Source of the DNA: a bacterium
GTDB taxonomy: Bacteria > JAMOTN01
Assembly: GCA_027062325.1 (NCBI GenBank)
Contig: JAMOTN010000018.1
Location: 1-46,158 of the forward strand
Reading direction: 5' to 3'
Length of the DNA: 46,158 nt
Part shown: piece by piece, positions 39,225 through 40,841 of the stretch
Layout of the letters: each line of letters opens with the position of its first letter
Position numbering within the stretch: the stretch's first letter is position 1
Program-made: the position numbers and the translations under genes
The notes under the pieces: model-generated
What the model was told of the DNA's origin: nothing
Databases searched by the model: none
The model's input: only the letters and a program-made list of their open reading frames with translations

Positions 39225-39485
39225 TCACTTTACAAGAACAAACATCAGAATCAGTGCTATAACCAACGAGTATATACCCGTTGACTCGGAAACCGCTTGA
39301 CCTATAAGCATTGTGCGTGTTATAAGAGGGGCTTGCTCTGGATTCTTTGAAACTCCTTCACAAGCCTTTCCAGCTGCAAACCCTTCTCCAATTCCAGGTC
39401 CAATTGCCCCAAAGCCCATAGCAATACCTGCTCCAATGTAAGCCGCTGCCTTTACAAGCTCTTTTCCTGTGATTTCCACTGCCAT
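39225..39485 (-). CDS. atpE: Fo ATP synthase c subunit, single hairpin, Na+-type
   Basis: GPGIGEG and [11 protein letters not shown] (E/E-S-T/Y sodium signature). Start at ATG 39485 behind GGAGGT. Confidence 0.97.
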
Positions 39486-39507
39486 AGAAAACACCTCCCA
39501 AGAAATT

Positions 39508-39852
39508 CTAATTATTCTCTATCCTAACAACCTCATTTTCTTCTCCACAAACAACAACTCGACACGGCACCTTTTTTTCTGCTAAAGTTTCAGCCATTAT
39601 TATAAGTTTATCTCCCACTTCTCCCAAACGAGCTGCTGCTCCATTTAATTCAACAACTTTACCATTTCCTTTTATAACATACGTCTCAAATCTATTGCCA
39701 TTTTCAACATTAACAACATGCACCATTTCATTTTCTTCTATTCCAGATGCCTTCAGAAGTTCCTCCCCTATTGTTATGCTTCCTTTATAATTCAAATCTT
39801 TTCCAGTAAGGCGCACAAAGTGTATCTTTGCCCTGAGCCACCTTCTCAACAA
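39508..39852 (-). CDS. panD: Aspartate 1-decarboxylase
   Basis: Starting from TTG 39852 gives K9, H11 and the G24-S25 cleavage site (YKGSITI); RFETYVI; NGAAAR..GD..II. Confidence 0.95.
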
Positions 39853-39878
39853 AACCACCCACTCCTTCTCTTTTTCAA

Positions 39879-40841
39879 CTATACAACATATATCAAAATA
39901 AGTGCTATTACCATTGCATAAACTGCGGTAGATTGAGCCACTGCCTGACCTATTAACATTGTCCTCAATGCCACAGAGTATTTCGAAAATCCGTATCCTG
40001 CAGCTCTAGTTCCTTCCTCTGCTGCAAATCCACAACCGTAGCCAGGACCAATTGCCCCAAACCCCATAGATATTCCAGCTCCCAAATATGCTGCTGTTTT
40101 CACAATCCCCGCATCTTTCACAGAAAACATCAATAACAACGAAACAACAAGCGCAAATATTGACGGAGTCGATGCCGCAGACTGCCCAATCAACATAAAT
40201 GTGATTACTTTGTCTGAAAAAGAAGGTCTCCTAGCAACTGCATCACATGCAGCCGCCGCTCCCATACCTTGACCAACCGAAGAACCGATTGCTCCCATTC
40301 CAACAGAAATCCCAGCAGCTAAATAAGCCATTGCAAGTGATATTGTAGTAGGTTTTGCTATAAACATAAGAAGCAACGAAACAACAAGTGCAAATATTGA
40401 TGGAGTTGATGCCGCAGACTGCCCAATCAACATAAATGTGATTATCTTATCCGAAAAATTAGGAATACGAGCAACAGCCTCACATGCAGAAGCCGCAGCC
40501 ATACCTTGACCTATAGAAGAACCAATTGCTCCCATTCCAATAGATATTCCTGCACTCAAATAAGCAATAGCAACAGGAATAGTTGTAGCTTTAGTAATAA
40601 AAACAAGAAGAATTGCTATGACCAAAGCAAATATTCCACCTGTTTCGGCAACTGCTTGCCCTATTAACATTGTACGAGTTATTATTGGAGCAGCTTCAGG
40701 CCTCATTCTTACTCCTTCCACTGCCTTCCCCGCTGCCTGTCCCTCTCCGATTCCGGGTCCGATTGCTCCAAATCCCATCGCAACCCCAGCACCTATTAAA
40801 CCTATGGCTTCCGCAAGGCCTTTTATAGTCTCCGCAGGCAT
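39879..40841 (-). CDS. atpE: Fo ATP synthase c subunit, four fused hairpins (about 8 TM helices)
   Basis: Four 79-aa repeats, each with a GxGAIG motif and MLIGQ; Glu at the ion-carrying position in repeat 1 only. SD GGAGGTG. Confidence 0.95.
   Translation of the reverse strand: MPAETIKGLAEAIGLIGAGVAMGFGAIGPGIGEGQAAGKAVEGVRMRPEAAPIITRTMLIGQAVAETGGIFALVIAILLVFITKATTIPVAIAYLSAGISIGMGAIGSSIGQGMAAASACEAVARIPNFSDKIITFMLIGQSAASTPSIFALVVSLLLMFIAKPTTISLAMAYLAAGISVGMGAIGSSVGQGMGAAAACDAVARRPSFSDKVITFMLIGQSAASTPSIFALVVSLLLMFSVKDAGIVKTAAYLGAGISMGFGAIGPGYGCGFAAEEGTRAAGYGFSKYSVALRTMLIGQAVAQSTAVYAMVIALILIYVV
40135..40574. repeat. Intragenic 237-bp-period duplication (hairpins 2 and 3 of the large c subunit)
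   Basis: Copies at about 40135-40337 and 40372-40574; a 37-nt identical stretch at 40171-40207 and 40408-40444. Confidence 0.9.

Follow-up and report, generated by a model that had tools for sequence, protein, structure and literature searches.

The window, a stretch of 46,158 nucleotides of contig JAMOTN010000018.1 (assembly GCA_027062325.1), contains an F-type atp operon with two genes for the c subunit. One codes for a single hairpin, whereas the other codes for four fused hairpins with a single carboxylate at the ion position, in the first hairpin. The large c subunit is probably a functional F-type paralogue, one or a few copies of which would join the small c subunit in a heteromeric Na+ ring. 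The first-pass annotation of this DNA had described a four-hairpin F-type c with one carboxylate beside a normal c, and our analysis upholds this description. Its statement that the atp operon has two c genes, one of them a normal single hairpin, was also correct; both lie on the minus strand.

The Large c Subunit Is Built of Four Hairpins

The reading frame of the large c subunit gives 321 amino acids from a TTG codon (39879–40844) or 320 amino acids from the ATG at position 40841, which has the strong ribosome site GGAGG 9 nt ahead of it. A profile search of the protein yielded the four ATP-synt_C matches that had been predicted (PF00137 in four stretches, E = 1.1e-49, 167 bits, cut-off 24). 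The alignment of the hairpins placed the ion position at E67, S146, S225, and Q304, the residues named in the first-pass annotation, with a spacing of exactly 79 residues each. A helix-2 carboxylate is found in hairpin 1 only, as Ser, Ser, and Gln occupy this place in hairpins 2–4. The same annotation had spoken of four exact 79-residue repeats. The register is indeed exactly 79 residues, but the sequences differ, with pairwise identities of 36–81% and the highest value (81%) between R2 and R3. Among the hairpins, the R2/R3 pair alone registers as a repeat at the DNA level in Tandem Repeats Finder (period 237, 1.9 copies, 84% matches, positions 40125–40573). The AlphaFold2 model of the protein has long helices throughout (pLDDT 96.4, pTM 0.92). 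Its mass is 33 kDa, against 8.7 kDa for the small c subunit.

R1 is 66% identical to the small c subunit and clusters with the first hairpins of its relatives in the hairpin tree described below. It keeps both Glu residues, yet Thr-Gly...Phe replaces Ser-Thr...Tyr.

The Operon Is of the F-Type and Holds a panD-Like Gene between the c Genes

The order of the operon is a-c(4)-panD-c-b-delta-alpha-gamma-beta-epsilon. The large c gene thus stands among a full set of F-type genes (a, b, delta, alpha, gamma, beta, and epsilon), and since delta (atpH) is present, the operon is of the F-type and not of the N-type. The coordinates of the features are listed in Table 1.

Table 1. Features of the atp operon and the hairpins of the large c subunit (positions in the window).
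Feature	Position	Strand	Evidence and remarks
atpB, Fo subunit a, 227 aa	40864..41547	-	PF00119, 161.8 bits; directly upstream of the large c gene
Large c subunit gene, four fused hairpins	39879..40841	-	PF00137 x4; stop codon within the range
Hairpin R1	40590..40841	-	Glu at the ion position (E67) and a second Glu in helix 1
Hairpin R2	40353..40589	-	Ser (S146) at the ion position, then T-P
Hairpin R3	40116..40352	-	Ser (S225) at the ion position; duplicate of R2, in this lineage only
Hairpin R4	39882..40115	-	Gln (Q304) at the ion position; S, T, Y retained after Gln
panD-like aspartate 1-decarboxylase gene	39508..39858	-	PF02261, 121.1 bits; between both c genes
Small c subunit, single hairpin, 86 aa	39225..39485	-	PF00137, 69.2 bits; two-carboxylate Na+ motif
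atpF, subunit b	38562..39137	-	PF00430, 77.8 bits
atpH, subunit delta	37989..38552	-	PF00213, 96.8 bits; TIGR01145, 76.2 bits, above cut-off
atpA, subunit alpha	36417..37955	-	PF00006, 283.5 bits
atpG, subunit gamma	35527..36357	-	PF00231, 233.6 bits
atpD, subunit beta	34032..35507	-	PF00006, 255.1 bits; longest ORF, true start may be further in
atpC, short epsilon, 110 aa	33673..34005	-	PF02823, 37.4 bits; N-terminal domain only
Terminator-like hairpin after epsilon	33586..33612	-	pattern match only; number of such sites equals the shuffle expectation

The N-type and V/A-type classes were also tried for these genes and were rejected. Apart from the presence of delta, the b subunit scored 101.8 against a cut-off of 224.7 on TIGR03321, and the small c subunit 65.9 against 130.85 on TIGR03322; the large c subunit exceeds the latter cut-off (130.85) only through the summing of its four repeats. 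All V-type K models of NCBIfam stayed below their cut-offs with the large c subunit (e.g., 99.8 against 188), and here, too, the operon contains delta. The C-terminal epsilon domain PF00401 gave no match in atpC at E ≤ 0.1.

The small c gene most likely starts at the ATG at 39485 behind GGGAGG rather than at the GTG at 39494. When aligned to the c subunit of Fusobacterium nucleatum (PDB 3ZK1), its product has the Glu/Glu-Ser-Thr...Tyr residues at matching positions (Glu32/Glu65/Ser66/Thr67/Tyr70). The two-carboxylate Na+ motif, with Glu in helix 1 and Glu-Ser-Thr...Tyr in helix 2, is complete, and the subunit is predicted to be of the Na+ type.

The two c genes do not adjoin each other directly, because a panD-like gene that was overlooked in the first-pass annotation separates them. 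This gene looks intact, and its score on TIGR00223 (99.7 bits) is slightly below the cut-off of 106. None of 79 related loci has space for a gene between the fused and the single c. A pattern search found no terminator-like site between atpB and atpF; the other such sites of the operon lie inside atpG and atpD only. A promoter-like site is present inside panD ahead of the small c gene, but shuffled sequence is expected to yield as many such sites. Judged from these signals, the large c gene is most likely co-transcribed with the small one.

Reads and Selection Argue for an Intact Gene

The genome is metagenome-assembled and the large c gene holds an internal repeat of 237 nt, which assemblers may miscount; the gene could then be an assembly artefact, or else a nonfunctional, decaying duplicate. 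Run X1 is probably the source sample, and the contigs of an independent assembly of this run tile positions 39100–41600 with 0 differences. Since 48 of 237 nt are different between R2 and R3, the two are separable by reads. Meanwhile, a 37-nt piece common to both had a depth of 26.8 in X1 against 9.6–13.3 in its neighbours, which is the value expected for two copies. A lack of read support for the duplication had been named beforehand as a possible refutation, but the contigs and the depth of X1 support two copies of R2/R3. Three further runs, X2–X4, contained small shares of this region. Run X2 gave three pieces of 100% identity (151, 151, and 74 nt at 39388–39538, 41275–41425, and 41527–41600), none of them in the large c gene, and runs X3 and X4 gave mostly diverged fragments from other organisms.

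R2 and R3 are under purifying selection, with a dN/dS of 0.21 at a dS of 0.64, and their helix 2 is identical at the protein level in spite of synonymous changes. Together with the open frame, the confident structural model, and the recurrence of the design in 80 of 80 related loci, these observations make an artefact or a decaying duplicate extremely improbable.

The Large c Subunit Belongs to a Family of Fused c Subunits

Fused c subunits with 2 to 6 hairpins were found at all 80 of the best related loci, which come from many phyla. At 79 of these, a single c follows directly after the fused one, and the contig of the 80th ends at that point. The design is thus not rare, as it is shared by a large family, some members of which have even longer ion-blind runs. 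Its members are annotated merely as "ATP synthase F0 subunit C" and occur in uncultured anaerobes; cultured carriers include Dethiosulfatarculus sandiegensis (L005), with five hairpins, and Cellulosilyticum ruminicola (L075), with three. Closest to the large c subunit are the three-hairpin genes of loci L001 and L007 with the ion-position pattern E-S-Q. No protein more than about 52% identical to the large c subunit was found in 5.8 billion sequences, the two large protein libraries searched agree on this limit, and the pattern E-S-S-Q was not seen among the best 80 related loci.

Among four-hairpin proteins, Ser stands at the ion position of hairpin 2 in 2 of 38 and of hairpin 3 in 1 of 38, while Gln occupies this column of hairpin 4 in 35 of 38. 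Twelve of 36 proteins with four hairpins, and 1 of 34 with three, have no carboxylate at all. All 38 four-hairpin proteins share the loop Arg and Pro of hairpin 2, and the Arg-x-Pro of the cytoplasmic loop is invariant or nearly so in their hairpins 1–3. The cytoplasmic loop of c is where the c ring contacts gamma and epsilon.

The hairpin tree was a quick IQ-TREE run on 25 of the 80 loci, chosen by hand, with strong support for 12 of 110 inner branches. The hairpins group by position and not by organism, with 13 label changes where shuffling gave 62.2, and none of 200 shuffles came as low. R2 is the sister of R3, and the two adjoin the middle hairpin of L001 and L007 (SH-aLRT 94). The best reading of the tree is that the gene would descend from a three-hairpin E-S-Q form in which this lineage doubled the middle hairpin.

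The first-pass annotation knew of no characterised bacterial F-type c with four hairpins and one carboxylate. In agreement with this, the full-text papers searched gave no description of a bacterial F-type c with at least three hairpins; outside that set, the review of hybrid rotors and their distribution by Brandt and Muller (2015) may list some, as may Matthies et al. (2014).

One Rotary ATPase Was Found in the Host Genome

The host is a hydrothermal-vent bacterium, and its genome, which is 83.9% complete, was the only one of its phylum among those searched. PF00137 matched only the five hairpins described here (four of the large and one of the small c subunit), and PF00006 matched only alpha, beta, FliI, and Rho. 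Profile searches of this 83.9% complete genome found no second rotary ATPase. The genome also encodes RnfA/E, the Na+-decarboxylase subunit OAD_beta, and a membrane pyrophosphatase.

AtpI is required for the assembly of the hybrid ring in Acetobacterium woodii. Neither AtpI nor AtpZ was found in the host genome at its 84% completeness. In L001, the nearest relative, an AtpZ-family gene and another small ORF lie upstream of subunit a, and a fused c is still present. As L001 carries both, the fused-c family does not replace AtpZ-type factors.

A Mixed Ring Is the Favoured Reading

The modelling of mixed rings had been proposed in the first-pass annotation. The large c subunit was co-folded with four small c subunits, which gave a score of 0.42, the best control scoring 0.00. 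Of 80 solved complexes, 58 reached the mark, and so did 2 of 110 mismatched pairs. Both mismatches, but only 7 of the 80 solved complexes, stood at 0.60 or lower. The runs agreed in at least 93% of contacts and the partner pLDDT was at least 75. It should be noted that the pass may only mirror likeness, as a like complex (4BEM) has already been solved. The model thus passed the mark, but it lends weak support, which may derive from solved rings that the predictor has memorised. The hybrid ring proposed earlier fits the genomic data in two respects: a single c accompanies the fused one at 79 of 80 loci, and residues of the cytoplasmic loop are invariant. We counted against it the panD gene between the c genes, which is unlike all 79 compared loci, the rarity of Ser at hairpins 2 and 3 among four-hairpin proteins, and the failure to find AtpI in the 84% complete genome.

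From these data, we infer the following on ring incorporation, stoichiometry, ring size, Na+ coupling, and direction of work. Most likely, one copy of the large c subunit, or a few, would assemble with small c subunits as c1 does in A. woodii. Hairpin 1 would provide one Na+ site, and hairpins 2–4 (Ser, Ser, and Gln) would occupy ring positions free of ions. With three ion-free hairpins, fewer Na+ would therefore be moved per turn and per ATP. If the ring had 11 hairpins, as the nearest solved Na+ rings do, one copy would leave 8 sites and about 2.7 Na+ per ATP, and two copies would leave 5 sites and about 1.7 Na+ per ATP. From the R1 site, the next one would be reached after four hairpin pitches, a step of about 131 degrees.

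Such an arc may be difficult to cross. In the fused c10 of Bacillus PS3, a single Glu-to-Gln hairpin is stated to have abolished ATP synthesis (PMC8809890, citing Mitome 2004), so a blind arc of three hairpins would be mechanically problematic for synthesis. The bias toward ATP-driven pumping and the gear change by subunit ratio that the first-pass annotation put forward are speculative, and the former sits uneasily with a sole rotary ATPase in a genome that has Na+-exporting Rnf and decarboxylase genes.

Other Roles of the Large c Subunit

It is also conceivable, though unlikely, that the two c subunits build alternative rotors, in which rings made mostly or wholly of the large c subunit exist separately from ordinary small-c rings and the cell shifts between them or varies their ratio. 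Three copies of the large c subunit, for example, would make 12 hairpins with 3 sites and about 1 Na+ per ATP, a pump-like gear. Each c gene does have a strong ribosome site of its own, and the promoter-like site in panD precedes the small c gene, at a number of such sites that shuffling also gives. An epsilon subunit with no detectable C-terminal inhibitory domain would suit an ATP-hydrolysing enzyme, and artificial fused c multimers are reported to form working rings (fused c10, PMC8809890). But the family members free of carboxylates (12 of 36 with four hairpins and 1 of 34 with three) cannot make a working ring alone, yet they are paired with a single c in the same way, and this pairing holds at 79 of 80 loci. 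The one characterised precedent, as described in PMC9171764, is a single mixed ring, and the presence of Na+ exporters in a genome where profile searches found no other rotary ATPase argues for competence in synthesis.

Less probable still is a role outside the rotor, in which the large c subunit would act as an assembly template or scaffold, or would stall the ring as a regulator, with no place in the mature active enzyme. That three of its four hairpins cannot carry an ion would agree with such a role, as would the failure to find AtpI and AtpZ in the 84% complete genome; L001, however, has its AtpZ-family gene and small ORF alongside a fused c. The loop Arg-x-Pro is kept in hairpins 1–3, which would be needless in a protein that never meets the stalk, and c1 of A. 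woodii is a bona fide ring member. We continue to favour the heteromeric ring of small and large c subunits.

Significance of the Blind Arc

How many ions a rotary ATP synthase moves per ATP is generally held to follow from how many identical c hairpins it has. To our knowledge, the single blind hairpin of A. woodii is the only characterised natural exception among bacterial F-type enzymes. The mixed rotor known from this species would be extended by the large c subunit. A sodium-based anaerobe whose only ATPase has a run of three blind hairpins would be a test case for how a and c step across uncharged sites and also for how low the Na+/ATP ratio can go.

We put forward, tentatively and as somewhat less than an even prospect, that the sole ATP synthase of this bacterium synthesises ATP with an ion-free arc of about 131 degrees, wider than a single catalytic step of F1 (120 degrees). 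Fo would then cross a third of a turn with no ion transfer, by elastic storage or thermal diffusion, and the fused-hairpin family, with its 2 to 6 hairpins and 0 to 3 sites, might be a natural stepwise gearbox by which energy-limited anaerobes bring Na+/ATP well below 3. With a family this large, and with cultured carriers in it, the question is directly testable in existing expression systems.

Comparison with Known Rotors

The best match of the large c subunit is c1 of A. woodii (PDB 4BEM chain J), both by sequence (E = 2.9e-27) and by fold (E = 1.2e-6, target TM 0.78, query TM 0.45), with the fold match spanning under half of the large c subunit. The first-pass annotation had rightly pointed to c1 as a relevant precedent, since it is the closest solved relative by both measures. 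The ring of A. woodii is described as nine single c and one two-hairpin c1 in an enzyme that synthesises ATP (PMC9171764), and Clostridium aceticum is stated to have a c1 of a Na+ F1Fo "F/V-hybrid" c ring as well (PMC7911925). Like c1, the large c subunit is a fusion of F-type hairpins whose F-type operon also encodes, next to it, a Na+-type c of one hairpin, and it has Glu in the first hairpin and Gln in the last, where the other ligands are kept (S-T...Y). Unlike c1, which has two hairpins, four helices, and 182 aa, it has four hairpins in 320 aa; the two additional middle hairpins are of a distinct class with Ser-Thr-Pro at the site, and three consecutive hairpins are ion-blind instead of one. 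Helix 1 has the Glu of the two-carboxylate type where the aligned c1 has Gln. Also in contrast to A. woodii, panD separates the c genes and AtpI was not found in the 84% complete genome.

As in the c11 ring of F. nucleatum (3ZK1; ligand positions as given in PMC3692424), the small c subunit and R1 have Glu at the helix-1 and helix-2 ligand positions, and the small c subunit also keeps Ser, Thr, and Tyr. The ring of F. nucleatum, however, is homomeric and made of single hairpins, and R1 has Thr-Gly...Phe and not Ser-Thr...Tyr.

The next-best fold matches after 4BEM chain J were V-/A-type proteolipids. With these (Enterococcus hirae NtpK, 2BL2, and eukaryotic Vo c), the large c subunit shares multiplied hairpins with fewer sites than hairpins, and archaeal c subunits with 1, 2, 3, or 13 hairpins are mentioned in PMC9171764. 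Their genes lie in V/A-type operons, whereas the large c gene lies in a delta-containing F-type operon, and the blind hairpins of V/A-type rings alternate with sites, whereas those of the large c subunit form a run of three. Within the fused-c family, the gene pair and the position-specific hairpin classes are alike, but the large c subunit is at most 52% identical to other members, and the duplication of the middle hairpin and the insertion of panD are found in this lineage only.

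The atp Operon Contains Two c Genes

The minus strand of the window carries a complete F-type atp operon (33.6-41.6 kb), in which subunit a is followed by the gene of a 320-aa fused c-like protein (large c), a panD-like gene, the gene of an 86-aa single-hairpin c (small c) and the genes of b, delta, alpha, gamma, beta and a short epsilon. The first-pass annotation had placed the small c alongside the large c; both are indeed in the operon, but panD, which it had missed, lies between them. The ATG of large c at 40841 is preceded by a GGAGG site 9 nt ahead, and that of small c at 39485 by GGGAGG. 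Pattern matching found no terminator-like sites between subunits a and b and one after epsilon, at a frequency equal to that in shuffled sequences. An N-type operon was ruled out by the presence of delta and by b and small-c models that stayed under their cut-offs; a V-type operon was ruled out as well, all V-type K models scoring too low.

The c-to-c gap never exceeds 216 nt in 79 related loci, whereas here it holds panD. The panD-like protein scored 99.7 on the NCBIfam panD model, slightly below the cut-off of 106, and it probably starts at a TTG located a few codons into the ORF as listed. A promoter-like site inside panD (10/12 matches) is located about 115 nt ahead of small c; as the region has just as many of these sites as shuffling predicts, it is alone no evidence. 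The gene upstream of subunit a encodes a TauE/SafE-family permease and is neither atpI nor atpZ. No C-terminal helical domain, which is the inhibitory part of epsilon, was detected in the epsilon of the window.

Features of the window
Feature	Position	Strand	Remark
Subunit a	40864-41547	-	PF00119
Large c	39879-40841/40844	-	PF00137; 320/321 aa
panD-like gene	39508-39858	-	PF02261
Small c	39225-39485/39494	-	PF00137
Epsilon	33673-34005	-	110 aa; matches N-terminal beta-sandwich domain only
Promoter-like site	39599-39627	-	
TauE/SafE-family permease	41640-42365	-	
Two tRNA-Met and one tRNA-Leu(taa) gene	42457-42937	-	upstream of the TauE-atp block
Methylmalonyl-CoA mutase	6570-8255	-	
GAF + HD protein	11780-14422	-	PF13487; 880 aa; cyclic-di-GMP
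GGDEF protein	14454-15746	-	cyclic-di-GMP
GGDEF protein	25893-27794	-	cyclic-di-GMP
Pfam-less ORFs	32622-33701, 23752-24960, 21246-22343, 17912-18937	-	
Pfam-less ORF	31270-32547	+	

The Large c Protein Consists of Four Hairpins

The profile scan of large c matched PF00137 in four places (E 1.1e-49, 167 bits), as the first-pass annotation had expected. When cut every 79 aa, the protein yields four units (R1-R4) that align without internal gaps with each other and with small c, and the ion-binding column of this alignment holds the residues named earlier, E67, S146, S225 and Q304 (ORF-track numbering). The hairpins had also been described as four exact repeats; their 79-aa spacing is exact, but the sequences differ, with pairwise identities of 36-81% (R2/R3 81%, R1 vs. 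small c 66%, R4 vs. small c 54%). R2 and R3 are the sole tandem repeat pair at the DNA level (period 237, 84% matches, 40125-40573). The AlphaFold2 model, built from an input alignment with 38 rows of four-hairpin relatives, shows long helices throughout (pLDDT 96.4, pTM 0.92).

The duplication was checked against a run of a hydrothermal-vent metagenome, which is probably the source sample and hence offers an independent assembly rather than independent data. The contigs of this run tile 39100-41600 with zero differences. They break within the R2/R3 repeat, where the depth is 26.8 on a 37-nt piece that R2 and R3 have in common, against 9.6-13.3 alongside; this fits two copies and neither one nor three. 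R2 and R3 differ at 48/237 nt and 15/79 residues (dN/dS 0.21, dS 0.64), their second helices being the same in protein with synonymous changes in DNA, and large c is under purifying selection. The identical 37-nt core may have arisen by gene conversion.

The Middle Hairpin Was Duplicated in an E-S-Q Type Protein

A quick maximum-likelihood tree was built from 113 hairpins, namely the five of the window and those of 25 hand-chosen loci from the 80 described below; few of its branches are strongly supported. The hairpins clustered by position in the protein and not by organism (13 label changes; shuffles averaged 62.2, and 0/200 went as low). R2 and R3 are sisters and lie beside the middle hairpin found in the three-hairpin E-S-Q proteins at the related loci L001, the nearest relative, and L007 (SH-aLRT 94). 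R4 groups with the last hairpins of these proteins (91) and R1 with first hairpins (86). As judged from these placements, large c is an E-S-Q type protein with a lineage-specific duplication of the middle hairpin.

The middle hairpins form a distinct class with Gln/Ser/Thr, then Thr/Ser, then Pro, and 33/36 of them fall in one tree group. In a set of 38 four-hairpin proteins, hairpin 2 always has the loop Arg and Pro, the loop Pro is present in hairpin 1 of 37/38 and in hairpin 3 of 34/38, and Gln occupies the hairpin-4 ion site in 35/38. The cytoplasmic loop is the contact of c rings with gamma and epsilon, and the fact that ion-blind hairpins conserve it argues for their place in a ring.

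Fused c Subunits Form a Family

Prokaryotic genomes, one for each species, were scanned and gave 322 related stretches, of which the best 80 were examined. All 80 contain an open frame that encodes at least two c hairpins; 3 loci have two, 34 have three, 36 have four, 1 has five and 6 have six. In 79/80, the next 216 nt hold the start of a single-hairpin c frame, and the contig of the 80th stops there; this c has Glu-Ser-Thr-Gly-Ile-Tyr in 71/79 and the helix-1 Glu in 72/79. The fused proteins retain 0 to 3 carboxylates, and the longest ion-blind run per locus is 0 (n = 3), 1 (18), 2 (32), 3 (9), 4 (12) or 5 (6). As runs of four and five exist in relatives, the run of three in the window is not extreme.

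The hosts named in records include Desulfobacterota, Hydrogenedentota, Cloacimonadota, Planctomycetota, Margulisbacteria, Nitrospirota and Chloroflexota; two carriers, Dethiosulfatarculus sandiegensis and Cellulosilyticum ruminicola, are in culture. The L001 operon has an ordinary F-type order (AtpZ-family gene, small unassigned ORF, a, c3, c, b, delta, alpha), and its downstream epsilon has 138 aa and two domains, compared with 110 aa in the window. In a collection of 5.8 billion proteins, 2217 proteins of 176-562 aa, among 7999 scored, matched at E<=1e-10, and those with a name are called "ATP synthase F0 subunit C" or carry a similar generic subunit-c label. Large c is a singleton there, with a top identity not above 52%. 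In a 50%-identity library, 79 representatives matched it at E<=1e-30.

Also in the representative library are c-like proteins 784-1139 aa long, in which 4-6 stretches matched (among P0153, P0159, P0169, P0171, P0174-P0268; G005:C1:686415-687311), and a big group of ~315-323 aa just 27-34% identical to large c, possibly a separate four-hairpin lineage.

The Host Genome Points to a Sodium Economy

The genome of the window (1.65 Mb, 81 contigs, 83.9% complete, 0.2% contamination, 38% G+C) comes, by the run record, from a hydrothermal-vent metagenome. No other species genome in the comparison belongs to its phylum, and 40/40 relatives offered share only the domain. PF00137 matched only the five hairpins of the atp operon, and PF00006 only alpha, beta, one FliI and Rho, so these searches found no second rotary ATPase in this ~84% complete genome; neither PF03899 nor PF09527 (atpI/atpZ) was found in it. 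No haem-copper oxidase was found in the genome. It encodes a Na+-translocating decarboxylase beta subunit, RnfA/E and a membrane pyrophosphatase (contigs C23:7981-9045, C50:6187-7337, C14:20228-22192). Together with the methylmalonyl-CoA mutase in the window and the Na+ motif of small c, these genes make a sodium-based anaerobic energy economy likely.

The window also contains three cyclic-di-GMP genes and five ORFs of 341-425 aa without a Pfam match at E<=1e-5, one of which directly follows the atp operon.

A Hybrid Rotor Would Contain Three Consecutive Blind Hairpins

The gene, its fold, residues, operon, family and purifying selection are established, and each functional step of large c is inferred. 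The protein would enter a ring with small c. Co-folding one large c with four copies of small c scored 0.42 vs. 0.00 for the best control (contact agreement between runs of at least 93%, partner pLDDT of at least 75) and supports this weakly: the mark was reached by 58/80 solved complexes and 2/110 mismatches, but just 7 of these solved complexes, along with the two mismatches, scored 0.60 or less. As a like ring (4BEM) is already solved, the pass may reflect likeness only.

Assuming 11 hairpins, as in F. nucleatum, I. tartaricus and A. woodii (nine plus one double), one large c would leave 8 sites and ~2.7 Na+/ATP, and two would leave 5 sites and ~1.7; the corresponding ratios are 3.7 in a plain c11 and 3.3 in A. 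woodii. At this ring size, the R1 site would be four pitches (~131 degrees) from the next site, which is more than one F1 catalytic step. In a fused c10 of Bacillus PS3, a single Glu-to-Gln hairpin abolished ATP synthesis (PMC8809890, citing Mitome 2004). Three consecutive blind hairpins in a natural enzyme are therefore mechanically problematic for synthesis. The pointers to making or spending ATP conflict (short epsilon, sole ATPase, Na+ exporters). We lean toward an enzyme competent for ATP synthesis, since it is the sole rotary ATPase found in the genome.

Comparison with Known Systems

Full-text searches of the literature found no bacterial F-type c described with three or more hairpins, and an earlier mention is possible in a 2015 hybrid-rotor review or a 2014 structure paper. 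A 2026 mBio paper goes no further than to report "two to four atpE copies" in Desulfatiglandales. Archaeal A-type c subunits are described with 2, 3 or 13 hairpins (PMC9171764).

The ligand positions of small c are the same as in the F. nucleatum c11 ring, where the Na+ ligands are Glu32, Glu65, Ser66, the carbonyl of Val63 and a water molecule that Thr67 holds in place, and Tyr70 hydrogen-bonds Glu65 (PMC3692424).

The best solved match of large c is the two-hairpin c1 of Acetobacterium woodii, both by sequence (4BEM chain J, E 2.9e-27) and by fold (E 1.2e-6, target TM 0.78, query TM 0.45), followed in fold by two-hairpin V-type proteolipids. The c-like fold matches listed each span about half of the model at most (query TM <=0.45), and the longest PDB sequence match covers 182 aa. 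In the printed alignment, hairpin 1 of c1 has Glu with Phe at the end, and hairpin 2 Gln with Tyr at the end, which is the R1/R4 pattern. The A. woodii ring combines one c1 with nine single-hairpin c and makes ATP at a low threshold (PMC9171764); C. aceticum has the same c/c1 pair (PMC7911925). We regard large c as a probable variant of this hybrid-rotor subunit; it is real and mechanistically interesting, and its design is not unique to the window.
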